A stretch of 64,000 bases of DNA from a bacterium (GTDB lineage: Bacteria; Patescibacteriota; Minisyncoccia; UBA6257; JAGOQP01): positions 846 to 64,845 of the forward strand of contig JAJXZH010000011.1 of assembly GCA_021780155.1 (NCBI GenBank). Direction: 5' to 3'. Of the stretch, positions 32,075-53,878 are shown piece by piece. Made by a program: the position numbers and the translations under genes. The notes beneath the pieces were generated by a model, which saw nothing but the letters and a program-made list of their open reading frames with translations, was not told where the DNA came from and searched no databases. The number at the start of each line of letters is the position of its first letter. Position 1 is the first letter of the stretch.

Positions 32075-34261
32075 TCAATTTGATTGCTCTGGCTGAGAAT
32101 TTGTCTTTCCGTTTGCTATTTGGTCTTTTGTTGTTGAAAGCGCCTTGATTGAAAGTCCAATTTTACCATTCTCGTCAACTTTAATGACTTTTGCCTTAAC
32201 CGTCTGACCCTGCTTTAAAACATCGGTAATTTTATTAACAAATCCACTTTTCACTTCAGAAATGTGAATCATTCCATCTCTGCCTCCGCCCAAATCGACG
32301 ATTGCTCCAAATTCCAAAAGTTTTATAATCGGTCCCTCTACAATTTCTCCAATTTCATACTCTTTAGTCATTCCATTTATCAAACTAATCGCTTTTTTGG
32401 CGCTTTCAGGATCGGTAGACGCGACAAAAACCTTTCCATCATCGTCAATATCAATAGAAATCAGCCCGTATTTTTCTATAATTCCATTAATCATTTTTCC
32501 ACCTGGACCAATAACCATTCCGATTTGATACGGTTTGACCTGAGTGAGCATAATAATTGGCGCGTAAGGGGAAAGCTGTTTTTTGGGTTCCGGTAAAACC
32601 TTTGCCATAACATCCAAAATTTCAAATCTGGCTTTTTGCGCCTGATCAATTGCTTGAGAAAAAATATCAGAAGTAATGCCTTCAATTTTAACATCCATCT
32701 GTAAGGCATTGACTCCGTCTCTGGTCCCGGCAACTTTCAAATCCATATCGCCATAATGATCTTCCGGTCCTTGAATATCGGTTAATACTTTAAAATCTGG
32801 GCTATTTTTTTTCGATTCATATCCTTCATAAGTTATAAGTCCCATTGCTATTCCGGCAACCGGTTTTTTAATCGGGACACCGGCATCCATCAAAGACAGA
32901 CACCCGGCGCAAGTGGTTGCCATCGAAGATGACCCGTTAGAAGACAAAACCTCTGAAACAATTCTAATGGTGTACGGAAATTCTTCTTGACTTGGTATTA
33001 CCGCTTCAAGCGCTTTTTTAGCCAAAGCTCCATGACCTATTTCTCTTCTCCCGGGCATTCCAACTCTTCCCGTTTCTCCCGTTGAATAAGGAGGAAAATT
33101 ATAGTGGAGCATAAATCTTCGTTTGAAAGAATTTTCCATTGTTTCTACTACCTGCTCCGAACCTGGAGCAGCCAAAGTAGTAACAGCCAACGCTTGAGTC
33201 TCTCCGCGCGAAAACAAAGCCGAACCATGCAATCTTTTAAAAAGACCGGTTTCGGCATAAAGTTCTCTGATTTCATCAAGCTTCCTTCCATCGGGTCTTT
33301 TTCCTGATTCTAAAATATTTTTATGAACAATGTCGTTTATGGCATCTTCCCAAATAGGCAGAACGTCGGATAAATTATCAACTTTTAATTCTTTCAAGTG
33401 CGCATAAAGCTCTTCCTCTAATTGAGAAAGTGAATTGTCTCTTTCGGTTTTCCCTTTTCCGTAAAGCGCTTCTTCCAATCTAGGGGCAATAAAATTAATA
33501 ACCGTTTCTTTTAATGCCGGATCTGTTTCCTTAAGAGCAACTTGAGTTTTGGGTCTTCCTATTTGAGAAATAATTTCTTTTTGAAAAGCTATCAGTTTTT
33601 TTATCTCTATGTGGCTATCGGAAAAAACTTTTTGTAAGTTTTCTTTAACAACGCTTTTTCCGCCGAGTTCAATCATATTAACTCTATTTTGAGTTCCGGA
33701 AAAGAATGAATCAAAAGAACCTTCCTCTTTCAAAATTTCTTCAACTTGAGAATTGGTTGGATTAAAAACAAAACCCTTTGATGGCGAATAAGCGGCTCTT
33801 ATTCCACCGATTGGTCCATTCCAAGGAATATCGGAAATGGATAAAACCAAAGAAGAAGTTACTTGTGCCAAAAAGTCCGGGTCATTTTCTTCATCGTAAG
33901 ATAAGATAGTAACAACTAATTGGACTTCGCGTCTCAATCGACTATCAAAAAGAGGACGAACGGATCGGTCTATTAAGCGCCCAGAAAGAACCGCCAAATC
34001 CGAAGGCCTCCCCTCTCTGCGAACAAATCGGCTGCCAATAATTTTTCCGGCGGCATAAAATCTTTCTTCATAATCAACGGTGAGCGGAAAATAATCCGTT
34101 GCCTTGTCTTGTTTTCCCATAACTGCGGTCACCAAAACCGAAGTATCTCCATATTGTCCAATGACAGCGGCGTTTGCCTGACCGGCAATATCGGAAATTA
34201 TAAATTTTAATTCTCTGTCGTGGAACGGAAGAGTAAACTCTTTTTTGTTTTTAAGCTGCAT
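32075..34261 (-). CDS. pnp: polyribonucleotide nucleotidyltransferase (PNPase)
   Basis: Two RNase PH domains, a KH domain, and a C-terminal S1 domain (GEIVEGPIIKLLEFGAIV). 728 aa. Confidence 0.95.
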   Translation of the reverse strand: MQLKNKKEFTLPFHDRELKFIISDIAGQANAAVIGQYGDTSVLVTAVMGKQDKATDYFPLTVDYEERFYAAGKIIGSRFVRREGRPSDLAVLSGRLIDRSVRPLFDSRLRREVQLVVTILSYDEENDPDFLAQVTSSLVLSISDIPWNGPIGGIRAAYSPSKGFVFNPTNSQVEEILKEEGSFDSFFSGTQNRVNMIELGGKSVVKENLQKVFSDSHIEIKKLIAFQKEIISQIGRPKTQVALKETDPALKETVINFIAPRLEEALYGKGKTERDNSLSQLEEELYAHLKELKVDNLSDVLPIWEDAINDIVHKNILESGKRPDGRKLDEIRELYAETGLFKRLHGSALFSRGETQALAVTTLAAPGSEQVVETMENSFKRRFMLHYNFPPYSTGETGRVGMPGRREIGHGALAKKALEAVIPSQEEFPYTIRIVSEVLSSNGSSSMATTCAGCLSLMDAGVPIKKPVAGIAMGLITYEGYESKKNSPDFKVLTDIQGPEDHYGDMDLKVAGTRDGVNALQMDVKIEGITSDIFSQAIDQAQKARFEILDVMAKVLPEPKKQLSPYAPIIMLTQVKPYQIGMVIGPGGKMINGIIEKYGLISIDIDDDGKVFVASTDPESAKKAISLINGMTKEYEIGEIVEGPIIKLLEFGAIVDLGGGRDGMIHISEVKSGFVNKITDVLKQGQTVKAKVIKVDENGKIGLSIKALSTTKDQIANGKTNSQPEQSN

Positions 34262-34414: not shown

Positions 34415-34930
34415 TTATCGACGACTTAATTTAGTTTTAAATAATACTTTTGAATTCTCATCCAAATCAATAAATGTGTCAACTGATTCTTTTAATTTAG
34501 AAGAGGAACTTCTGCCAAAAGAGGCGCACTCAACCTGCTTACCCTCGCCCCATTTTAAATATTCAACCAATGGAATAAAATCTCCATCTCCGGTAATCAA
34601 AATCACCACATCCAAAGATTTTGCCATTCTGATTGCATCAACCGCCATCCCCACATCCCAGTCGGCTTTTTTAGCGCCTCCGGAAAAAACTTGAAGGTCT
34701 TTCATTCTCAATTCTATTCCACTTTTTTCCAAAGCCTCAAAAAAAGCGCCCTCTCCGGCGGAGATGTCGCTTTTAACCACGTATCCTATGGCGCGGATTA
34801 GCTGTCTTGGACCAACAACCAATTTTACAAGCTCGGAAAAGTTAACCCTTGAACCATAAAGATGCTTTGCCGAGTGATACAAATTTTGAACATCCACGAA
34901 AATTCCGACTCGTTGGTCTTTGTAGCGCAT
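34415..34930 (-). CDS. NYN-domain (LabA/YacP-like PIN-fold) putative ribonuclease
   Basis: VGIFVDVQNL...DVGMAVDAI...VVILITGDGDFIPLV carries the NYN acidic residues. Confidence 0.65.
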   Translation of the reverse strand: MRYKDQRVGIFVDVQNLYHSAKHLYGSRVNFSELVKLVVGPRQLIRAIGYVVKSDISAGEGAFFEALEKSGIELRMKDLQVFSGGAKKADWDVGMAVDAIRMAKSLDVVILITGDGDFIPLVEYLKWGEGKQVECASFGRSSSSKLKESVDTFIDLDENSKVLFKTKLSRR

Positions 34931-36462: not shown

Positions 36463-36831
36463 CTATTGAGTAAGTCCGGAAGACAATGAACTCTGAACCA
36501 AGCTTACCACTCCATAAGAGAGCAAGGCAACGACTATGCCAACGATGGCATAAATCAGTTCCTGTTTGGCTTTTTTGGTTGTTTCCGTGTCCCCCTTGCT
36601 GGTAATGAAATGAAAAGCTGACAAAAGAATAAAAAGAACCGCGACAATAAAGATTATGTAATAGAACCATTTAACTACGGTAACTAACATTCCAACCCAA
36701 CCACTTATAGTAGTAGTATTCCCATAAGTAGGACCGAGATTAATAGGGGTTGTGGGCTGAGCGAAAACCGATACTCCTACCGCAAACAACAGAATCACCA
36801 ATCCAATTGACGCAAATATTTTTTTAACCAT
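36463..36831 (-). CDS. VirB2/TrbC-like T4SS pilin-family protein (paralog A)
   Basis: Signal peptide, variable region, then TM1-(SKGDTETTKKAKQEL)-TM2 hairpin (YAIVGIVVALLSYG), as in the other paralogs. Confidence 0.5.
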   Translation of the reverse strand: MVKKIFASIGLVILLFAVGVSVFAQPTTPINLGPTYGNTTTISGWVGMLVTVVKWFYYIIFIVAVLFILLSAFHFITSKGDTETTKKAKQELIYAIVGIVVALLSYGVVSLVQSSLSSGLTQ

Positions 36832-36903
36832 GATTTTTTTTATCGTTACGACCTTTACTTTTTAATATTTTTAATAATAGCATAAACATTTAATAATCTC
36901 AAA

Positions 36904-37296
36904 TCAATTCGCACCTCTGCTTTGCAAAAACTGAGTAATTGTCCAAGAAACACCGGAAGCAATCAGAGCTACGACTATAGCAATAATCGCATATTTTAAT
37001 TGAGACTTAGCCGTTTCTGCCTTCTTTTCATTTGCCCCTCCTTGGAGAAAATTGTAGGCCGCCAAAAGAATAAATAAAACGGCAACTACAAAAAATATAA
37101 CATAAATCCACTTAACTATACTAATCAATATATACCAGAATTGAGTAACGCCAGTTATCGGAGAAGAAATTTCGCTGTTTCCAAAAGGGTTTATATATCC
37201 TTCATTTACTGCGAAAACTTCAAAAATGCCGGTTGTCAAAAATATGGTTATAAATAAAAATGGCAATATCTTTAATAATTTTTTTTGTTTAAACAT
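36904..37296 (-). CDS. VirB2/TrbC-like T4SS pilin-family protein (paralog B)
   Basis: VKWIYVIFFVVAVLFILLAAYNFLQGGANEKKAETAKSQLKYAIIAIVVALIASG is the conserved core. Confidence 0.55.
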   Translation of the reverse strand: MFKQKKLLKILPFLFITIFLTTGIFEVFAVNEGYINPFGNSEISSPITGVTQFWYILISIVKWIYVIFFVVAVLFILLAAYNFLQGGANEKKAETAKSQLKYAIIAIVVALIASGVSWTITQFLQSRGAN

Positions 37297-37311
37297 AAAT
37301 TTAAATTTATT

Positions 37312-37698
37312 TTAATAAACTCCTCCGCTACCAAGAAATTGAGCGATAATAAATGAAAGACCCGAAGCAATAAGTGCGACAACTATAGAAATAGCGGCAT
37401 ATTTTAGCTGTCCTTTGGCAATCTCTATCTTTTTTTCGTTTGTTCCTCCTTGAATAAAATTATAAGCCGCCATCAGAATAAAAATAACTGCCACCACAAA
37501 AAATGCTCTATAAATCCAAATAACAATATTTCTTATAATATCAAACACGCCGTTCACGCTATTGACCGGAGATGCCGTATTTCCTGTGTTAAAAGGAGCA
37601 ATATTAACTCCGGAGGTATCCGGCGATCCGGCGGCAAGAACGATTATCGGCAACATCATCATAATTGCAGCCAATGATAAAAAAAACTTTTTTTTCAT
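37312..37698 (-). CDS. VirB2/TrbC-like T4SS pilin-family protein (paralog C)
   Basis: Core AVIFILMAAYNFIQGGTNEKKIEIAKGQLKYAAISIVVALIASG is nearly identical to paralog B. Confidence 0.55.
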   Translation of the reverse strand: MKKKFFLSLAAIMMMLPIIVLAAGSPDTSGVNIAPFNTGNTASPVNSVNGVFDIIRNIVIWIYRAFFVVAVIFILMAAYNFIQGGTNEKKIEIAKGQLKYAAISIVVALIASGLSFIIAQFLGSGGVY

Positions 37699-37712
37699 AT
37701 TTTTGATATTAA

Positions 37713-38030
37713 TTATTTATTACCCAAAAATGTATTTATTATTGTAGCAACTCCCGAAGCGGTTAGAGCGATAACCAAAGCAATAACGGCATATTTCAAC
37801 TGAGCTTTAGCGGTTTCTATTTTTTTGGGATTATCTCCTCCCTGAAGATAATTAAATGCCGCCAAAAGAATAAATCCGACAACAACAATATAAAAAGCTT
37901 CATACATATAAGTGACGGCTTTTTGCATCAAGGCAATAATATCATCAGCGGTATTTATTTGAGCAAATGCCACCATCGGAAATCCGGAAATAATCGCCGC
38001 CGCTATAATTGATTTTGTTTTATTTTTCAT
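37713..38030 (-). CDS. VirB2/TrbC-like T4SS pilin-family protein (paralog D)
   Basis: Core FILLAAFNYLQGGDNPKKIETAKAQLKYAVIALVIALTASG. Confidence 0.55.
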   Translation of the reverse strand: MKNKTKSIIAAAIISGFPMVAFAQINTADDIIALMQKAVTYMYEAFYIVVVGFILLAAFNYLQGGDNPKKIETAKAQLKYAVIALVIALTASGVATIINTFLGNK

Positions 38031-38050
38031 ATTTAAATATTTTTATTAAA

Positions 38051-38386
38051 TTAAGCGCCAATGAAATTTTTAACTACCGCCGCTATTCCTTTTGCCGCAA
38101 GAACTACGGCCATTCCGACAATCGTATAAGTAATCGTTTTCTTCCCTTGAGCAAATTTGCTTTCATTGCCGGCGGCGCCAAGCATTTGAAACGCTCCGAC
38201 AAGCAACATTATAACAAAAACGGGAGAAGCAAGTTCAACAATAAATGTCGCAATTTTATCAACCAAATCGGGCACGGTAGTGACAGACAACGGATTGGGC
38301 AGAGAAACTCCACCGTTATCGGCGGCACTGGCAACTATCGGTATCCCCGAAACAAAGATAAATAGCGAATAGAAGATTTTTTTCAT
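38051..38386 (-). CDS. VirB2/TrbC-like T4SS pilin-family protein (paralog E, divergent)
   Basis: Same architecture, with a divergent loop AAGNESKFAQGKKTITYTIVGMAVVLAAKG. Confidence 0.45.
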   Translation of the reverse strand: MKKIFYSLFIFVSGIPIVASAADNGGVSLPNPLSVTTVPDLVDKIATFIVELASPVFVIMLLVGAFQMLGAAGNESKFAQGKKTITYTIVGMAVVLAAKGIAAVVKNFIGA

Positions 38387-38410
38387 ATTTTATTTATTAT
38401 AGACATTATA

Positions 38411-38782
38411 CTATTGTGTCGGCAAATTTAAAAACTTCAAAACGGTATTAACCAAAATCCAGGCGCCAAAAGTCAAAACTATGCCGATTGCCGCCGCAGT
38501 TATTTTTTGCCTTCCTTTTTTAAATTTTCCTTCATCACCCGCCGAAATCGCCATTTCAATTCCTCCCCAAACGATAACAATGATTGCCACCGGTGTAACG
38601 ATGTCGGTTAAAACGAAAGTAACTACACCCTGAACTGTTTTTACAAAATCGGAATAGGTGCATGGATTTTGGCCGTTCCCTCCACAATTAACCAAAGCGG
38701 CAAAAGATTGCATGGCATTCATAAAAAACACCAGAGAAAAAAATAAAATTCCGTAACCGTATTTTCCGAATTTTTTTATCAT
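38411..38782 (-). CDS. VirB2/TrbC-like T4SS pilin-family protein (paralog F, divergent, Cys-containing)
   Basis: Same architecture. The loop GGIEMAISAGDEGKFKKGRQK resembles the pilin domain of the M15 fusion protein at 10621-11622. Confidence 0.45.
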   Translation of the reverse strand: MIKKFGKYGYGILFFSLVFFMNAMQSFAALVNCGGNGQNPCTYSDFVKTVQGVVTFVLTDIVTPVAIIVIVWGGIEMAISAGDEGKFKKGRQKITAAAIGIVLTFGAWILVNTVLKFLNLPTQ

Positions 38783-45240: not shown

Positions 45241-45885
45241 TTAAAACGACGCCAAAGTTGCATCAATGGCACTCATTGAATTTTCTTGACTGACAAATTT
45301 TGCCAAATTAGGGTCAAAACTCAAAGAATTTGCCTCCAAAGCTACCGACGAACTATCAAAGGGAAGAATATCGGAAGAACTCGATGTCGCAACCGATGAG
45401 TTAATCGCCTTTAAAAAAGAAGATTGGGCAACTTGAGTCGATTGCTTTTCTCCGGCAATGTAATTTTGAATAAAATTATCGGCTTTGTCGGCTGTTTTTT
45501 CTTCTTTGGAAATTTTGTTGATATCGGTTATTTGCGACTGTTCTTTCAAAAAAGGATTGCCCAAAAATACAACAACGGCAAGAATCGCCACAAATACCGG
45601 AATAGTGAATTTTATCCATTTATTAAAACCTATTTGGAATTTAATCTTGCTCGAAGTCAAAACCGGTTGGAACTTGCTACCGCCATTATTGTCTTGAGGA
45701 AGATTATTTAAAATATTTAAAAGCGCCGATTTTTCCGGTTCAATTTTATTTTCGATTTCATCGGCAAATTTCAAAAAGTCGGACAATTCTCTTTCTCCTT
45801 CCGAAATAAAAATCTCGGACATTTTAAGCCGGTTGTTTTCCTCCCCTATTTCATTTACTATTTTTTTTAAATTTTCCCTTTTCAT
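45241..45885 (-). CDS. single-pass membrane protein, putative anti-sigma factor
   Basis: Its start overlaps the stop of the upstream ECF sigma gene. Cytoplasmic N-terminus, one TM (IPVFVAILAVVVFLG), and a Ser-rich extracytoplasmic domain. Confidence 0.4.
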   Translation of the reverse strand: MKRENLKKIVNEIGEENNRLKMSEIFISEGERELSDFLKFADEIENKIEPEKSALLNILNNLPQDNNGGSKFQPVLTSSKIKFQIGFNKWIKFTIPVFVAILAVVVFLGNPFLKEQSQITDINKISKEEKTADKADNFIQNYIAGEKQSTQVAQSSFLKAINSSVATSSSSDILPFDSSSVALEANSLSFDPNLAKFVSQENSMSAIDATLASF

Positions 45886-46457
45886 TTTTTATTTTTCAAT
45901 AAAATTTCTTTTAACGCTTTAATGGCTCTAAACTGAAGCGCCCTTACCGCAGAGGATGATTTCCCCAAAATCTGGCAGATTTCGTCATTGGCTAATCCAT
46001 CAAAAAATTTCAAAGTTATCATCTCTCTTTGTTCTTCACTTAATTTAATAAGCGCGCTTCTTACATCTTTCAGTCTTTGAGAATAGTCATAATCTTCTTC
46101 AATATATTTTTTATCACCGGACGCCTCCAAAACTTCCAGATCATCAACAAAAATTTCTTTTTTCTTGCGCCAATAATCTATCAATGTGTTTTTGGCAATG
46201 GTGAAAAGCCAAGGCAGAATTTTTTGGCGGTCAATATCATTTCTGTCGTCGTTTTTGTCAACGATATTTTCCCAAGCCTTCATAAAAACCAATTGAGACA
46301 AATCTCGGGAAAGATTTTCATCGGCGGTTCTGACGATAAAATATCGATAGACCGGAGAAAGGTATTTTGAATAAATAATTTCAAAAGATTCTCCGTCAAA
46401 ATTTCTGGCTTGGTTTAAATAATCCTTGAAATTTTTTTTATTTTTTATCTCTTCCAT
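45882..46457 (-). CDS. ECF-type RNA polymerase sigma factor
   Basis: Region 2 (LPWLFTIAKNTLIDYWRKK) and a region 4 helix-turn-helix (ICQILGKSSSAVRALQFRAIKALK). 191 aa. Confidence 0.8.
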   Translation of the reverse strand: MEEIKNKKNFKDYLNQARNFDGESFEIIYSKYLSPVYRYFIVRTADENLSRDLSQLVFMKAWENIVDKNDDRNDIDRQKILPWLFTIAKNTLIDYWRKKKEIFVDDLEVLEASGDKKYIEEDYDYSQRLKDVRSALIKLSEEQREMITLKFFDGLANDEICQILGKSSSAVRALQFRAIKALKEILLKNKK

Positions 46458-46496: not shown

Positions 46497-47453
46497 TTAC
46501 AAAGACCTCATCAAATCGGAGATAACGCCTCTTATATAATCCATATAATCCGAGGAGTCAATTCCCCATGGATCTATATTTACCACCTTAAAAGAAGAAT
46601 TTTCAAGTAAAGTGGAAGCGCTTTGCGGATCGGAATTGGTATCGGTAATAATCGTTTTGGCTCCAATTTTTTTTAAATCAGTTCGCAAAACGGTTCCTAA
46701 TTTATCCAAATTATATTGAGTTGAAGATAAATCAAAAGCTCCAACGGTATGGATCTGAAGATTATCAACCAGTGGCGACCAAATTGTTCCATCCAAGGCC
46801 ACGCTTTCAGAATGAAAATTTTTTAAAATATCCAGAGTTGATCTTAGTAGTGTATCCAGTTTAATGGAATAATCATAGGCATTGTTTATATAATATTCTT
46901 TATTTCCAACATCGAATTTTCCCAGCTGTCTTCCTATACCTTGAATTATCTGCCTTACATCCTGCAAAGAAAGCCAATAATAAATCTGTCCGGAAGAAAT
47001 CGTTTTTTTGGAATTAAAAACATCAGGATAAGCAATGGAACTGGATGACGAAATAAATTGGTCCAAAGGAATAACTACTAATTTACCCCCTGATGAAGAT
47101 GATAGATTTTTTGTCCAGTCATCAAAACCATCGCCCATAGCAAAAAATAATCCTTGAGAAAATCCTCTTCTGTTTTTACCAATTTTATTTGTCCAATCCA
47201 CCAAAGAATTATCCGAAGGTGAAGCAAAAATTTTAACTTCAACTTTATCTTTCCCAACGGCATTTATCCAATCGGCAATCATTGGAAATGAGGTTCCTAT
47301 TTGAACCTTGGGTAAAGAGGAGTCGTTTACAACCGTATAATTTTTGTTTTCTATATTAGGCGCTTCTTTAACGACAAACAAAATTCCAACCAACAAAAAA
47401 ACCGCCAAAAAAATTATCACATCAGATTTTCTAATCCTCAAAAACATAAGCAA
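46497..47453 (-). CDS. membrane-anchored TroA/ZnuA-like (cluster A-I) solute-binding-fold protein, possibly degenerate
   Basis: Positions equivalent to the ZnuA DPHxW and HDAxxY motifs read QIYYW and NNAYDY. The metal-ligand His residues appear absent. Confidence 0.35.
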   Translation of the reverse strand: MLMFLRIRKSDVIIFLAVFLLVGILFVVKEAPNIENKNYTVVNDSSLPKVQIGTSFPMIADWINAVGKDKVEVKIFASPSDNSLVDWTNKIGKNRRGFSQGLFFAMGDGFDDWTKNLSSSSGGKLVVIPLDQFISSSSSIAYPDVFNSKKTISSGQIYYWLSLQDVRQIIQGIGRQLGKFDVGNKEYYINNAYDYSIKLDTLLRSTLDILKNFHSESVALDGTIWSPLVDNLQIHTVGAFDLSSTQYNLDKLGTVLRTDLKKIGAKTIITDTNSDPQSASTLLENSSFKVVNIDPWGIDSSDYMDYIRGVISDLMRSL

Positions 47454-47472: not shown

Positions 47473-48798
47473 TCAAAAACTGCTAAACAAAAAATTCATA
47501 GGATCTTGATACCCAAAAAGCCACGGGTTGTCGGAAGTGTAGCCGACACAATTTGTTATTTTGCCATTGGGAATAACGCAAGTATCGCTTTTGGGGGAAC
47601 CAATAACCGGCTCGCTTTTTATTTCCAAGTGCAGATGAATATCATTTTCACCGGGTTGATCGCATCCATCTTTTCCTATTTTCCAATAATCGCATCCGTA
47701 TCCGGTATTGCCGACGGTCGCTATCTTCTGTCCGCCGGATATAATATCGCCTATTTTTATCCCCGCTTCAATAGAGCTCAGGTGCCCATATAAAGAGTAG
47801 ATTTTCTCTCCGTTTATTTTATGTTCCAAGATTATTGTATTACCCAAACCGGCGTCACCGTGTCCATTTGAAATTATATTTACAACAACTCCCGGATAAA
47901 TAGCATAAACTCCCCGATCAACGGCATCTTTATAAGGAGCCAAGTCCAAGCCGGCATGTTGAATGTATTCTTCTTTTTTGTCTCCGCTCCAAACACCTCC
48001 CGACCTGATGGGAGAATTATATCTTTGGCGAACCCAAAACTGAGACAGATTAACCGGAGCAAAGAAATTATCTTTCAATTTGGCATTATCCAACGTTACA
48101 TACGAAACAACGGCATCTCCGGTTTTAGCGGTATCGTAAAAAGTTTTTGCAATATCATCATTGAGTCGAATGCATCCTCCGGAAAATTGACTGGTAACTT
48201 TGGAGCCGTCTCCCCAGTAGGGAATGTTATGTATAAAAAAATCCTCATAAAACTGGACGGCATCTTCCATAAAAACCGGAACAACCGAAGATTTTAATTT
48301 TCTGGTTTTAACTCCAATATCAAAATAACCGGTTGGCGTTTCAAACCAAATTCCATAAGGAGCTTGGTAGGCAATGGGAAATATTTTTTGAACAACTCCG
48401 TTTTCATAAAATAAAATTTTATTGTCGGTCAAATTTATTTCAAATAAACGAAACGCATTTTCTTTGGGGGGTTTAAAACAATATTTTTGGTCTTCAGGAT
48501 TTAAAGACGCCATATTATTTCCGCAATAATTTATCGGCTGATTTTTTATTTCCGTTGAAGTTTCCGATGGTTGAGCAAAAGAAGGCAAAGCCGAACCCGC
48601 TAAATCAAGACCAACCGAAGACGTAATATTGCCACCAACAGTTGTTGATGATTCATTTGAATCTTTGGGATAGTAAACAATTTCTGAGGCCATCAATTTT
48701 GACAACTCATTTTTTAAAAAAATATTATTTTTAAAAACAAAAAAACCGCCGACAAAAAGCGCCACCAATAAAACAATTAATGATTTTCTCATTGCCAA
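47473..48798 (-). CDS. bifunctional L,D-transpeptidase (YkuD) / M23 (LytM) peptidase-domain cell-wall enzyme
   Basis: YkuD catalytic GGCIRLNDD. M23 HxxxD (EHKINGEKIYSLYGH) and HLHLE motifs. N-terminal TM anchor. Confidence 0.75.
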   Translation of the reverse strand: MAMRKSLIVLLVALFVGGFFVFKNNIFLKNELSKLMASEIVYYPKDSNESSTTVGGNITSSVGLDLAGSALPSFAQPSETSTEIKNQPINYCGNNMASLNPEDQKYCFKPPKENAFRLFEINLTDNKILFYENGVVQKIFPIAYQAPYGIWFETPTGYFDIGVKTRKLKSSVVPVFMEDAVQFYEDFFIHNIPYWGDGSKVTSQFSGGCIRLNDDIAKTFYDTAKTGDAVVSYVTLDNAKLKDNFFAPVNLSQFWVRQRYNSPIRSGGVWSGDKKEEYIQHAGLDLAPYKDAVDRGVYAIYPGVVVNIISNGHGDAGLGNTIILEHKINGEKIYSLYGHLSSIEAGIKIGDIISGGQKIATVGNTGYGCDYWKIGKDGCDQPGENDIHLHLEIKSEPVIGSPKSDTCVIPNGKITNCVGYTSDNPWLFGYQDPMNFLFSSF

Positions 48799-48835
48799 CT
48801 GATTTTAATCTAAAAATTATACAAATAAAAGAAAA

Positions 48836-48860
48836 GCCGCGTTTTTTAAAAAAACGCGGC
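48836..48860 (-). terminator. rho-independent terminator (perfect palindrome) downstream of the GC-rich small gene
   Basis: GCCGCGTTTTTTAAAAAAACGCGGC is followed on the minus strand by a U-run. Confidence 0.5.
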
Positions 48861-48887
48861 AAAAAACTAACATCCTCCAGTCACGCC

Positions 48888-49217
48888 TTAGGCGTGACCG
48901 AAGACAAAAAGAATGACCGAAGCGGCAAAAATTGCCGCCACGGTCATCCAGTCCGCCAGCAGAAAAAACTTCTGCCGGCGAACAGCGCGCTGGACGGAGC
49001 GTTGCGCCGCCCAGCCACAAAGAATCAAACCGGCGATGGAGCCAACCCCCATCGCCAGAGTCCACAACCTCTCGGGACCGGAGGACGAAAGCGCCCCCCC
49101 GAGCCCGAGATTCAAGTCCACCAAGAAACCGGCGAACCCGAAGATCACTGCGCCAAAAATCGCGGCGGCGGCGACAAAAATCGCCGCCACACCAAAGAAA
49201 ATCCACCGATTGAACAT
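48888..49217 (-). CDS. small 3-TM membrane protein encoded in a GC-rich islet
   Basis: 109 aa with three hydrophobic helices. Strong SD (AGGAGGGAG) 6 nt upstream of the ATG. Local GC is clearly far above the flanks. The TAA stop sits in the loop of hairpin GTCACGCC-TTA-GGCGTGAC. Confidence 0.5.
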   Translation of the reverse strand: MFNRWIFFGVAAIFVAAAAIFGAVIFGFAGFLVDLNLGLGGALSSSGPERLWTLAMGVGSIAGLILCGWAAQRSVQRAVRRQKFFLLADWMTVAAIFAASVILFVFGHA

Positions 49218-49373
49218 ATTACTCCCTCCTTTTTGCCCGCCTTAATCACTCTGTGCGAGCTGTTCACTACTTGTTTTGTTGTTGTTTTCAAACAAATCTA
49301 TTTTATATTATAGCAAATAAATGTAATTTGTCAATAACAATCAAAAATATGACAAATAAAATTCAAAAACGAA

Positions 49374-50111
49374 TTAATTGCCTGTGACCATCGATTCAAG
49401 CGTCTTGACGTCAAAAGGATTGGTTACCTGCTGAGCTTTGCCGTTTTTAATAACAAAGAGAGTCGGAGTTGATATATTTTGACCCATCGCCTTTTGCGCG
49501 TCGGACATAAAGCCGTTTATTTGGTTGGAATATTTTTGAGAGTCATAGCAAGAAGAAAATTGATTCACATCCATACCTATTTTTTTGGCGGAATTAACAA
49601 AAAAGTCTCTGGTCAAATTTCCGGAATTTTCATTGCTCTTGCCACTTTTAATTTCACTGAGTTCGGCATTATAGATTGAGTCATACATATCCCAAAATTT
49701 CCCCTGGTCGTTGGCGCATTCTGCCGCCTGAGCCGCATGCCATGACTCTCCACTTCCTCCTTTGTGAGCATAATCGTCAATGAAAGTTAAAATTTTAAAA
49801 ACCATATTGGCTTTGCCGGTATCAATCAAATCTTTTCTGATTTGTGGTTCGGCTGTTCCAAAAAACTGAGTGCAAGCGGAACATTGAAAATCTCCGAACT
49901 CTAAAATAGTGGCCGGAGCATCAGCCTTGCCAAGCACGGGCAGTCCTTCCACCGAAAGACCCTGATCAGAAAGAGAAAGAGGCGCCGTCGGCGTTTGATT
50001 GCCGGAATTATTTGCGGAATTTCTGGGGAAAAAATACATCAATCCCATTCCCGCCACAAGAATCACAATGACAATAATCAAATAAATAGTCAGCCTGTTG
50101 TTGTTTTGCAT
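49374..50111 (-). CDS. DsbA-family thiol:disulfide oxidoreductase, membrane-anchored
   Basis: N-terminal TM. Thioredoxin-fold CxxC (FQCSACTQF). Overall DsbA/BdbD-like length. Confidence 0.6.
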   Translation of the reverse strand: MQNNNRLTIYLIIVIVILVAGMGLMYFFPRNSANNSGNQTPTAPLSLSDQGLSVEGLPVLGKADAPATILEFGDFQCSACTQFFGTAEPQIRKDLIDTGKANMVFKILTFIDDYAHKGGSGESWHAAQAAECANDQGKFWDMYDSIYNAELSEIKSGKSNENSGNLTRDFFVNSAKKIGMDVNQFSSCYDSQKYSNQINGFMSDAQKAMGQNISTPTLFVIKNGKAQQVTNPFDVKTLESMVTGN

Positions 50112-51787: not shown

Positions 51788-52345
51788 ATGGCAGATGAGC
51801 GCAACGACAACGAAAAACAGCTTTTAGAAAGCGCTATCCGGGGTGAGGCCTCGGCTTTTGGCTTGCTTTATGACAAATATCAACCGAATATTTTTCGGTT
51901 TATATTCTTAAAAGTAAGCCGGCGTGAGGAGGCCGAGGACCTCACTCATCAGGTATTTCTCAATGCCTGGCAAAACATAGAAGCCTTTGAAGATCAGGGA
52001 TTGCCATTATCAAGTTGGCTTTATAAAATTGCCAGAAACAAGGTGATTGATTATTACCGAACAAAAAAAAGCATCACCAGCATAGAAAATGTTTCGGAGG
52101 ACTATTTTGAAACCTCACGGGATGGAGGGATGGAAACAATAGGAAATAAAATAGAAGTAGAAGAAATATATAGAGCCCTCAAAAAACTTTCTCCCGAATA
52201 TCAGGAAATAATAATAATGAGGTTTGTGGAAGAATTGTCACCGCGAGAAATTGCAAAAATAACCGGCAAAAAAAACGGGGCAATCAGAGTTTTGCAATTT
52301 AGAGCATTGAGACGACTTAAAAAGATATTGGAAAAAAATGAATAA
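51788..52345 (+). CDS. ECF-type RNA polymerase sigma factor (paralog of 45882..46457)
   Basis: Region 2 (SSWLYKIARNKVIDYYRTKK) and a region 4 HTH (IAKITGKKNGAIRVLQFRALRRLK). Confidence 0.8.
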   Translation: MADERNDNEKQLLESAIRGEASAFGLLYDKYQPNIFRFIFLKVSRREEAEDLTHQVFLNAWQNIEAFEDQGLPLSSWLYKIARNKVIDYYRTKKSITSIENVSEDYFETSRDGGMETIGNKIEVEEIYRALKKLSPEYQEIIIMRFVEELSPREIAKITGKKNGAIRVLQFRALRRLKKILEKNE

Positions 52346-52898
52346 AAAACAAATAATCAACAATTTAAAACTATTAAAAGAAATCAATCCCGAAAATGAC
52401 TTTTCCAGAAAGTCCAGGTTAGCCATTCTTCAAACACCATTTGTTTCCAAAAAAGTTTTACAAGATGAATCAATTTTGTCGGCACTGGAGATGGCTCCAA
52501 TAAAATTAAAAAACTATTCCTTAAAAAGCATATTTTCTAACGGAGGCAGAGCAATATCCGTGGCAATGGCGACGGCAATTATTCTGGTTGGAATCTATTT
52601 TGCCACCTCTCAATTATCACCACTTTTTCTCCCGGGATTAAATCAAAGCAAGGTTGTTGCCGAAGCGGATATGATAAACAACACCATCAACATCCAGCTT
52701 TCTCATATAAGTAAATTTGAACAAACCGCCAAAGCAAGCACCACTGCTCTCAAAGAAGTTGCCGCTACCGCTCCCAATCACATAAATTCGTCTGTTATTA
52801 AAGCCGAACAATCTGAAATAAATTCAGCTTTCAATACTGATCCGCAATCGCAAAATAATCAGGATATAAGCAATATATTAAAAACAATTTCTCAATAA
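52338..52898 (+). CDS. single-pass membrane protein, putative anti-sigma factor (module 2)
   Basis: Overlaps the sigma gene stop. One TM (ISVAMATAIILVGIYFATS). The extracytoplasmic domain is Ser/Asn-rich. Confidence 0.4.
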   Translation: MNKKQIINNLKLLKEINPENDFSRKSRLAILQTPFVSKKVLQDESILSALEMAPIKLKNYSLKSIFSNGGRAISVAMATAIILVGIYFATSQLSPLFLPGLNQSKVVAEADMINNTINIQLSHISKFEQTAKASTTALKEVAATAPNHINSSVIKAEQSEINSAFNTDPQSQNNQDISNILKTISQ

Positions 52899-53878
52899 TG
52901 AAAACAAAAAACATCAAAAAAATATTTTTATCATCCATTTTTTGCAGTTTGTTGCTAACAGCATTTTTTGTGAACATTTCAAAAGCAAACGCCCAAGACC
53001 AACAAAGCGGTTCACTTTCGGATATAATTTCTCAAACCAAAGATGAAGTAAATCAACTTTTGAACCTCAAAGACGACACGACTTTATCTACAGACCAAAA
53101 ACAAAAACAAGAAACCGACTTGAATATAAAAATTATTTCAAATGTTTTGGATATTTCTCTTTCTCAAGTAAGTTCCACTATCCAACAATTTGCCAGCACC
53201 ACCCTTCCTCAAGGAAATGGTTGGTCTGACGTTGGGGAGTATATAAACAACTTGCTTAATAATGATTATCAATATTACCAAAACGCTCAGGCTGAATTTA
53301 ATGCATCTTCCACCTCAATGACTTTGGATCAATTAAAATTGTTTGCTAAAGATTTAAACGACAAGAAATCCGGCCAAACCGATCAAGACCTTCAAAGAAT
53401 CAATATTGTGATTGCCGCCTTAAATACGCCGAGCATTCTATCAATTGCCGATGAAAGACTCTCCAAAGTATCGCTGGATGTCAAAAAAATATACGACCGG
53501 AATATGACAAAAAACCAAACACTAAAGGATCTTTATGACCAGGCATCCAAATATTTGTCTAACGCTCACGACTACAACAACCAAGCTTTAGATATGATAT
53601 TAAACACATTCACCGCTTCAACTACCACTTCAACCAAAGATTACGTGACATCGCTTAAAGATAAAATATCAAAAAACAAAGAAATTGCCGCCAATGCTCT
53701 GTCGGATATATCCTCTCCCGATTCCAACTCAAGCTCCACTCAAGATTTTTCCGCAAGCCAGGAAGATATGGATAATTATTTGGCCAATTTGGTTTCAAAT
53801 GCCTACACCGGTATAAAATCGGCTTATGATGTCTTTGTAAAAATGAGCACTAATATAAATAAATATCTAAACAGTTAA
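52898..53878 (+). CDS. secreted hypothetical protein (third gene of sigma module 2)
   Basis: Signal peptide. The C-terminal SAYDVFVKM motif is shared with the 44209-45234 protein. Confidence 0.4.
   Translation: MKTKNIKKIFLSSIFCSLLLTAFFVNISKANAQDQQSGSLSDIISQTKDEVNQLLNLKDDTTLSTDQKQKQETDLNIKIISNVLDISLSQVSSTIQQFASTTLPQGNGWSDVGEYINNLLNNDYQYYQNAQAEFNASSTSMTLDQLKLFAKDLNDKKSGQTDQDLQRINIVIAALNTPSILSIADERLSKVSLDVKKIYDRNMTKNQTLKDLYDQASKYLSNAHDYNNQALDMILNTFTASTTTSTKDYVTSLKDKISKNKEIAANALSDISSPDSNSSSTQDFSASQEDMDNYLANLVSNAYTGIKSAYDVFVKMSTNINKYLNS

Follow-up and report, generated by a model that had tools for sequence, protein, structure and literature searches.

The subject of this analysis is a short GC-rich islet at positions 48874–49250 of a 64,000-nucleotide stretch of DNA from a bacterium of the Patescibacteriota (contig JAJXZH010000011.1; the whole stretch is called the window below, and coordinates are counted from its first letter). 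The islet is very probably a bona fide, vertically inherited single-gene unit, in which a sigma-70 promoter, an 83-nt leader, a Shine–Dalgarno (SD) sequence, an open reading frame (ORF) for a 109-residue protein and an intrinsic terminator are combined with eight conserved stem-loops of the messenger RNA that are under selection. The GC content is high because this chain of mRNA hairpins has been conserved, and foreign ancestry is not the source; the hairpins are the best-supported cause of the GC excess and perhaps not the only one. A preliminary description of the region, made from the sequence alone, had proposed a stand-alone unit for a three-helix membrane protein, a view which we retain. 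Its further suggestions of recent transfer, chimeric assembly and a holin or immunity function were not sustained, and the true cause of the GC excess, i.e. the conserved mRNA hairpin chain, had gone unrecognised.

The gene was found in five lineages, namely that of the window, a sister lineage (L007; GCA_027423215.1 = JAKANP010000012, WY5.bin78) with a 109-aa homologue of 71% identity, and only three further lineages (P0003, P0004 and P0005) at 34–42% protein identity. All parts of the unit in the window lie on the minus strand. The promoter (49307–49334) consists of TTGACA, a 16-nt spacer and a TG-extended TATAAT, matching the consensus at 12 of 12 positions, and an equally perfect TTGACA-N16/17-TG-TATAAT promoter (12/12) precedes the small gene in all five lineages. 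The consensus promoter and the small gene are separated in L012 by a gene for a type IV pilin-like protein of 125 aa with an N_methyl motif (2423–2903). Transcription in the window probably starts about 7 nt after the −10 hexamer, which would give an AT-rich 5′ untranslated region of about 83 nt (49218–49300) with a small stem-loop (GCTCGC...GCGGGC, about 49235–49260) just upstream of the SD; a stem-loop directly 5′ of the SD is visible by eye, unscored, in the upstream sequences of all five lineages. The SD, AGGAGGGAG (49222–49230), is found 4 nt before the ATG of the 109-aa ORF (48888–49217), which the frame test and hydropathy described below identify as the coding sequence of a membrane protein with three hydrophobic segments. 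The TAA stop is placed in the 3-nt loop of a 13–14-bp hairpin (48874–48904) with the core GTCACGCC/GGCGTGAC. Beyond it, an 11–12-bp perfect palindrome, GCCGCGTTTTTT(T)AAAAAACGCGGC at 48836–48860, runs into a stretch of T residues (TTTTCTTTT) to form the intrinsic terminator (48827–48860). The preliminary description had already recognised the minus-strand ORF with its SD, the stop codon within a hairpin loop, the palindromic terminator following it and hence the stand-alone nature of the unit, all of which are confirmed here; the sigma-70 promoter is an addition to that account.

The transcript inferred from these elements (49300 to 48820, minus strand) was folded and has a minimum free energy (MFE) of −235.9 kcal/mol, compared with −168 ± 6 kcal/mol for dinucleotide shuffles (z = −11.4). 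The equivalent whole-transcript scores are z = −13.0 for L007, −8.25 for L009 and −2.7 for L008. The fold is a series of eight adjacent local hairpins of 11–15 bp, with individual energies of −15.7 to −27.3 kcal/mol, followed by the terminator. This chain begins at about codon 9 and ends just past the stop codon, leaving the initiation region comparatively open, and its span coincides with most of the islet. A consensus structure calculated with RNAalifold from an alignment of the five sequences contains 115 pairs in 10 helices, most of which can be assigned to individual elements of the window transcript. The first half of the first transmembrane segment (TM1) is encoded within hairpin 1 (49160–49195, −23.2 kcal/mol; consensus helix 3, in which 8 of 16 pairs have changed on both sides), and the end of TM1 together with the DLN motif within hairpin 2 (49111–49142, −15.7 kcal/mol), which is only partly represented in consensus helix 4. 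Hairpin 3 (49070–49110, −26.8 kcal/mol; helix 5) covers loop 1 and the SGPE motif, while TM2 corresponds to hairpin 4 (49030–49058, −21.6 kcal/mol; helix 6), whose loop contains 49046, the one base that is polymorphic at strain level. These are followed by hairpin 5 (48985–49018, −20.6 kcal/mol; helix 7), by hairpin 6 (48951–48983, −23.3 kcal/mol; helix 8) within a block of 47 nt in which the window and the sister lineage do not differ, and by hairpin 7 (48911–48949, −27.3 kcal/mol; helix 9) in TM3. Hairpin 8 (48874–48904, −22.5 kcal/mol) is the stop-codon hairpin and is present in all five lineages, although MAFFT left it unaligned. The terminator is consensus helix 10.

Standard pairs are formed in 81.4% of the cells of the consensus, as opposed to 37–53% when the partners are slid by one to three columns, including in-phase slides of ±3. 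Both sides have changed in 45 of the 115 consensus pairs (14–27 in the slid controls), and none of 500 column shuffles reached any of the covariation measures. The fractions of consensus pairs formed in the individual lineages are 0.92, 0.96, 0.73, 0.70 and 0.77. Synonymous codons were also permuted within the gene, a procedure which leaves the protein, the codon usage and the GC content unchanged. In four of the five lineages this costs 25–41 kcal/mol of folding energy (z = −6.2, −6.5, −7.3 and −4.0). The same permutation of the 55 other ORFs of the window gives z = −0.76 ± 1.3, and their mean MFE over 330 nt is −74 kcal/mol compared with −181 kcal/mol for the small gene. Judged from these sequence comparisons, the helices have been kept in place over five lineages by compensatory and G·U-compatible substitutions, with selection acting on the placement of synonymous codons. 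An origin of the hairpins as a tandem palindromic repeat was considered and rejected: they are not copies of one unit, and there is a single 37-nt internal direct repeat (TM1/TM3).

G·U pairs make up 20.5% of the paired cells, and the antisense strand folds with an MFE of −166.8 kcal/mol (z = −8.1), i.e. 69 kcal/mol more weakly than the sense strand, from which we conclude that the structure belongs to the sense RNA. Substitution rates between the window and the sister lineage are unusual in both directions. The number of synonymous substitutions per synonymous site (dS) is 0.56 for the small gene and 0.89–1.33 for four flanking genes, whereas its non-synonymous counterpart (dN) is 0.19 compared with 0.05–0.09. 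Third codon positions that are paired in both lineages differ at 23% of sites, as against 38% for unpaired positions (n = 13) and 35–39% in the flanks, and the 47-nt block shows zero synonymous change. The GC content of third codon positions (GC3) in the window is 0.83 in stems and 0.34 in unpaired regions, a contrast which is partly a folding artefact and lends weak support only. As a side observation, the leader at 49255–49265 (GAACAGCTCGC) is complementary over 11 nt, with one mismatch, to 48980–48990 (GCGCGCTGTTC) in the invariant 47-nt block; this pairing would survive as G·U after two A-to-G changes in the sister lineage, and may represent a possible long-range alternative to the local hairpins.

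The compositional anomaly itself is pronounced. In a scan of the 64 kb in 300-bp windows (mean GC 0.368, standard deviation of the windows 0.046), the top outlier is 48874–49173, with a GC content of 0.617 (z = 5.4); the next-ranked one reaches z = 3.2 and adjoins two tRNA genes. The edges, resolved in 20-bp steps, are abrupt, with a change from 0.35 to 0.65 at 48881 and values of 0.30 or less after 49260, and so the earlier impression of a sharply bounded islet well above its AT-rich flanks is correct. The companion claim that every frame is open holds for five of the six frames, in which ORFs of 93–177 aa span the islet, but not for all six. The anomaly goes beyond amino-acid content. GC3 of the 109-aa ORF is 0.70, compared with 0.34 ± 0.04 (maximum 0.43) in the 55 other ORFs of the window, and A accounts for a fraction of 0.097 of its coding strand compared with about 0.32 elsewhere. 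All five copies of the gene are GC-rich, with 0.55–0.61 in the coding sequence and GC3 of 0.61–0.78 on contigs of 0.37–0.45. At the dS of the flanking genes, a two-state model of neutral decay predicts that GC3 would have dropped to at most 0.49–0.58 even from a starting value of 1.0, whereas the observed values are 0.68–0.71 in both the window and the sister lineage. GC3 above this ceiling implies that something actively maintains the GC excess.

What the hairpins might do for the mRNA can be proposed with less assurance. Local hairpins would reform behind each ribosome, leaving few single-stranded A/U-rich sites for endonucleases, and each stem, as well as the terminator, would block 3′-exonucleases. 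RNase III usually needs roughly two helical turns, and the stems of 11–15 bp would be too short for its usual mode of cleavage. Structure throughout the ORF would at the same time lower translation efficiency, and strong transcription combined with low translation per mRNA would supply the membrane with a very hydrophobic protein steadily, in small amounts and with little noise. The mRNA may thus be strongly transcribed, long-lived or nuclease-resistant, and slowly translated, a tentative proposal to which we would give somewhat less than an even chance; taken as a whole, an explanation that joins the well-supported description of the unit to this functional reading is slightly more probable than not. 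The window also encodes a PNPase (32075–34261; RNase_PH, KH and S1 domains) and an NYN-domain ribonuclease (34415–34930), about 15 kb from the islet. The two genes matter here only as a sign that the host possesses a 3′-exonuclease activity that the hairpins could block.

Several observations weigh against this account. Codon permutation in L008 costs 7 kcal/mol only (z = −1.3), and the same lineage combines a GC3 of 0.61 (0.33–0.48 in its neighbours) with little excess structure, such that the hairpins are perhaps not the sole driver of GC content. Similarly, the pilin-like gene of L012 has a GC3 of 0.72 (0.36–0.42 in its neighbours) and only moderate structure (z = −3.4). The contrast in GC3 between stems and unpaired regions clearly beats the permutation control only in the window and L008. 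The covariation is drawn from five lineages only, and the consensus was derived from the same sequences in which pairs were then counted. Templated mutation of quasi-palindromes could mimic part of the compensatory pattern. Finally, nuclease-proofing and translation throttling are both things that we infer.

The product of the unit is a real protein rather than an accident of composition. The ORF is 108–112 aa long in the five lineages, with a conserved SD and start codon; in P0003 a better start is found 12 nt upstream of the called one and restores the conserved MxNRxI N-terminus. The mean pairwise BLOSUM62 score among the five lineages is 1.82 per column in the annotated frame and no more than 0.99 in the five other frames, and this frame-specific conservation shows that the ORF is translated. 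Differences per site at codon positions 1, 2 and 3 amount to 0.47, 0.36 and 0.58, and dN/dS between the window and the sister lineage is 0.33. Two motifs in loop 1, DLNxG and (S/T)GPERL, are invariant or nearly so, and their codons vary (GAC/GAT for Asp; TTG/CTG/CTC for Leu; AGG/CGG/AGA/CGA for Arg). Hydropathy analysis finds three hydrophobic segments in four of the five lineages, the middle segment of L008 being under the cut-off, and the grand average of hydropathy of the 109-aa protein is 1.15. An AlphaFold2 model based on the five-sequence alignment places helices at residues 2–37, 48–79 and 83–107 with low confidence (mean predicted local distance difference test score (pLDDT) 60.8, predicted template modelling score (pTM) 0.34), and together these results uphold the three hydrophobic helices that had been noticed at the outset. 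A basic cluster (residues 73–83 of the window protein) lies between segments 2 and 3 in an Arg/Lys-rich second loop. Under the positive-inside rule, basic loops are cytoplasmic; the N-terminus and the Arg-rich loop 2 would accordingly face the cytoplasm, and the DLNxG...GPERL loop would face outward. The chain terminates within or just after TM3 (...LFVFGHA), with no more than one charged residue among the last 20.

Profile searches against Pfam and NCBIfam returned no family at E < 0.01 for more than one of the five proteins, and searches with all five against PHROGs, PADLOC and the sequences of the PDB gave nothing significant. On sequence grounds, then, the product is an orphan small membrane protein with three hydrophobic helices. 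A role as a DsbB/VKOR-like partner of the neighbouring thioredoxin-like protein was considered and discarded. Such a role requires two Cys pairs, whereas the protein has one invariant Cys, in the second hydrophobic segment; the thioredoxin gene is absent from three lineages; and the sole VKOR match (E = 0.011, one member) is not significant. The suggestion that the gene might encode a holin-like or immunity protein beside a wall hydrolase fared no better. The hydrolase gene (YkuD/M23) is a neighbour in two of the five lineages only, there is no phage or prophage lysis cassette at the locus, where the neighbours are chromosomal, and the protein lacks a charged C-terminal tail. Searches for holin families gave insignificant matches to families of unknown function in PHROGs, a single NCBIfam match (holin_4, E = 0.33, for one of the five members) and nothing in Pfam, and PADLOC likewise returned no match.

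The locus is old, and genes have been added around the small gene. In the window its chromosomal neighbours encode thioredoxin-like, YkuD/M23 and ZnuA-like proteins and an extracytoplasmic function (ECF) sigma factor, and the sister lineage has the same order (thioredoxin-like, small gene, YkuD/M23, ZnuA, ECF sigma). In P0003, P0004 and P0005 the small gene has a divergent ECF sigma operon on one side and the ZnuA-like gene on the other, and a second ECF sigma gene is seen past ZnuA wherever the contigs reach that far. The sugar transferase, thioredoxin-like and YkuD/M23 genes around it in the window therefore joined the locus later. The constancy of the ZnuA-like gene and two ECF sigma operons as neighbours hints that the protein may have an envelope- or metal-related partner role.

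Homologues were sought by an exhaustive HMMER search of 1.84 billion representative proteins and by profile searches of 5.8 billion proteins, neither of which contains a homologue from outside the clade; the family ends at five clusters. Scans of genomes, metagenomes and viral contigs gave only extra copies from the same lineages, or none, and neither phages and plasmids (tblastn, blastn) nor viral contigs contain a match to the islet. A protein of 99% identity, differing by V58I only, is encoded with the same neighbours on contigs of three independent assemblies (Logan SRR13178630, GCA_027423175.1 and ENA ERZ27236866), the two longer of which (3.2–3.7 kb) have 99.97% DNA identity to the window. 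Only one base of the 521-bp unit, at 49046 in a hairpin loop, distinguishes the three from the window. The exact window product (Val58) is itself absent from a collection of 15 billion proteins in which its neighbours are present, and the gene is apparently uncalled on its own contig. The recent horizontal acquisition proposed in the preliminary description is contradicted by the presence of an always GC-rich gene at the same locus in lineages diverged to 34% identity, and by the lack of any donor match. The chimeric assembly that had been offered as the alternative is contradicted by the three independent assemblies that reproduce the region at 99.97% identity. A contaminant is also disfavoured, the protein being unmatched outside the clade and the islet in phages, plasmids and viral contigs. 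The same GC-rich locus with its promoter in five lineages rules out both recent acquisition and a chimera. An acquired islet would be expected to have an atypical composition, which is present (GC 0.617 vs 0.368), and a patchy distribution, which is not seen, as the gene is syntenic in all five lineages in which it was found; no border repeats were found in the window.

Among other explanations for the conservation of the helices, the one that survives best is that the hairpin chain of about 480 nt also works as an RNA, where it might bind proteins as a scaffold or sponge, serve as a ribonuclease decoy or have a regulatory role. The fold scores (z = −8 to −13) and the covariation of one helix after another match what is seen in dedicated structured RNAs, and abundant small RNAs typically have the same combination of a consensus promoter and a strong terminator. 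This idea would also suit a gene whose protein evolves 2–3.5 times faster than those of its neighbours and whose synonymous sites evolve more slowly, including the 47-nt block that lacks synonymous change. Nevertheless, the stems are simple, their loops vary freely and no loop or bulge is conserved beyond positions fixed by the protein. There is no match to an Rfam family: at gathering thresholds a scan of the whole window returns four tRNAs only, ARAGORN finds no tmRNA, and the best matches by E-value in 48000–50000 are terminator-like fragments at 25 bits, compared with gathering scores of 49–58. Furthermore, no observation demands a function beyond the stability and translation of the mRNA itself. 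We therefore regard a dual function as unlikely, and assign the same low standing to its boldest form, a new kind of bifunctional RNA in which a hairpin scaffold (protein platform, ribonuclease decoy or membrane-localising element) would encode an orphan membrane protein.

Less likely again is a resemblance in function to type I toxins, in which a strongly transcribed mRNA would be self-silenced, with its SD paired to the U-rich 3′ tail until processing, and would encode a membrane-damaging product. The small size and hydrophobicity of the membrane protein, the consensus promoter, the leader of 72–84 nt and the extremely structured mRNA are all as expected for such a system. Pairing of the SD with the U-tail of the terminator is predicted (consensus helix 1 is paired in 96.7% of cells and in five of five lineages), the probability of the SD being unpaired is 0.06–0.39 in three lineages, and comparable long-distance sequestration of the SD is reported for the aapA1 toxin mRNA (PMC6733600). 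Across all lineages, on the other hand, the unpaired probability of the SD ranges from 0.06 to 0.63, and the predicted helix has only 6 bp, is rich in G·U and is generic for a purine-rich SD. With 108–112 aa and three helices the proteins exceed the 20–60 aa of type I toxins (PMC8594479). A consensus scan for an antisense promoter-like site found none in L008, L009 or L012 (non-canonical promoters could escape it), and the site shared by the window and L007 is part of the YkuD/M23 coding sequence. The gene is moreover single-copy and strictly syntenic, being neither patchy nor repeated, and its dN/dS of 0.33 and conserved motifs in the loop are as expected of a protein that has a specific partner. 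The toxin-like role suggested in the preliminary description is thus improbable, the unit lacking most of what defines type I toxins.

The palindromes might instead be a mutational or DNA-level by-product (of template switching, cruciforms or protein-binding sites) with no RNA function. Template-switch mutagenesis can alter the two arms of an inverted repeat at once, with a result that looks like compensatory evolution, a 37-nt direct repeat joins the TM1 and TM3 regions, and the antisense strand also folds well above chance. The G·U pairs in 20% of cells would, however, be C·A mismatches on the other strand and mispairs in DNA, the sense RNA is the more stable by 69 kcal/mol, and the helices occupy the same codon positions down to 34% protein identity with their synonymous sites constrained, all of which makes this explanation very unlikely. 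We give still less credence to a non-coding structured RNA with an accidental ORF in stop-poor, GC-rich sequence. Five of the six frames are open, a second sense frame is stop-free in two lineages, and structured RNAs are known to stand out as GC-rich islands in AT-rich genomes (PMC6429828); against this stand the frame-specific conservation of amino acids, the gradient over codon positions, motifs that are kept by means of synonymous codons, a conserved start codon and SD, and a conserved hydropathy and positive-inside pattern (apart from the middle segment of L008, which is under the cut-off). Least credible of all is a recently acquired foreign cassette, a chimera or a contaminant, in that the abrupt compositional break, the atypical GC3 and the two dispersed palindromes that flank the unit in the sister lineage are set against the same locus in five diverged lineages, identical junctions in three assemblies, a host-like promoter and leader, a GC content that passive retention under the neutral decay model could not have preserved, and no match outside the clade in 5.8 billion proteins or in phages, plasmids or viral contigs.

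Some further features of the region and its relatives are recorded here. The palindromes just mentioned are perfect over 24–30 bp (CACRGTTTCAATATTGAAACYGTG) and occur in three copies in 12 kb of L007 (1037–1060, 5777–5800 and 6481–6504), as well as in L004, L005 and L006; two copies bracket the small-gene unit in L007 and the element is absent from the window. It may be a repetitive extragenic palindromic (REP)-like element or an operator. Within the YkuD/M23 gene, at 48699–48728 on the plus strand, a promoter-like TTGACA-18-TATTAT (11/12) points towards the islet in antisense orientation; it is kept in L007 within conserved coding sequence and absent in the three lineages that lack YkuD/M23. 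At the ZnuA-like and ECF loci (46497–47453, 45882–46457 and 51788–53878), the ZnuA-like gene has no adjoining ABC permease or ATPase genes; after it come an ECF sigma gene and two ORFs without a Pfam match, while a second ECF sigma operon with two ORFs without a significant Pfam match lies on the other side, an arrangement kept in L008 and L012, the two lineages whose contigs extend far enough to show it. The ECF sigma gene at 51788–52345 (plus strand), which is the divergent neighbour of the small gene in three other lineages, is the second most structured ORF of the window (permutation z = −4.6, fold z = −5.5), and contains a long, imperfect hairpin (about 110 nt, at about 51840–51950) towards its 5′ end. 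Elsewhere, six tandem paralogous ORFs of 104–129 aa at 36463–38782 (minus strand) match PF18895 T4SS_pilin, one of them also weakly TrbC/VirB2, and form an array of pilin-like genes.

Returning to the small gene as a protein-coding unit filled with conserved mRNA hairpins, it illustrates that a sharp GC island in an AT-rich genome can mark selection for RNA structure over a coding sequence, and is not necessarily a sign of foreign DNA or of a non-coding RNA. As a natural case of double coding the gene is unusually clean, in that amino acids and eight helices have been kept together over deep divergence, with synonymous sites that evolve more slowly and protein sites that evolve faster than those of neighbouring genes. 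We found no published report, in open-access text, of a conserved hairpin chain filling the ORF of a membrane protein. With 330 nt, the gene is a compact test system for the effects of structure within an ORF on mRNA lifetime and translation, and for the behaviour of ribosomes on back-to-back hairpins. It also adds an unannotated orphan family of membrane proteins, of very narrow distribution, to a poorly known group of bacteria. If the bifunctional RNA discussed above were true, an RNA device would have evolved in step with a coding sequence, at the level of single nucleotides, in an uncultivated bacterial lineage.

Compared with known systems, the small gene behaves like mRNAs with ORF-wide structure, has the layout of type I toxin mRNAs and carries the genomic signature of GC-rich structured RNAs. 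The resemblance to class I holins, which the proposed holin function had implied, is limited to a length of about 100 aa, three transmembrane segments and the wall hydrolase gene next door in the window; unlike those proteins, it has no phage context, no hidden Markov model match and no charged C-terminal tail, and the hydrolase is absent in three of the five lineages. In AT-rich genomes, structured non-coding RNAs have been found as GC-rich islands by the GC-rich intergenic region (GC-IGR) approach (Stav et al. 2019, PMC6429828). The islet is likewise a GC-rich stretch in an AT-rich genome that results from selection for stable base pairing, and differs from these RNAs in that the structured RNA doubles as a conserved coding sequence and matches none of 4227 Rfam families. 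Type I toxins are 20–60 aa long and are controlled by an antisense RNA antitoxin (T1TAdb, PMC8594479), and the aapA1 toxin mRNA is reported to sequester its SD over a long distance (Masachis et al. 2019, PMC6733600). The small gene resembles hok, aapA1, tisB and other genes of this kind in its strong promoter and long leader, in an mRNA that is compact, highly structured and presumably stable, in a hydrophobic product destined for the membrane, and in an SD that may pair with the 3′ end. In contrast to them, its product is about twice the maximum size, with three helices, no antisense RNA partner was found in the scan described above, inheritance is single-copy, syntenic and vertical, and the structure fills the ORF and does not serve mainly to sequester the SD. 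In Escherichia coli, low translation efficiency has been correlated with intrinsic mRNA structure throughout an ORF (Burkhardt et al. 2017, PMC5318159). As in those ORFs, the structure is confined to one ORF and made of local pairings, with the initiation region comparatively open, and lower translation per mRNA would be expected. What sets the small gene apart from the E. coli ORFs as described is the strength of its structure (−181 kcal/mol over 330 nt, compared with about −74 in neighbouring genes here), its division into eight discrete hairpins, their covariation across lineages, and a degree of base pairing strong enough to make the gene visible as a GC island.

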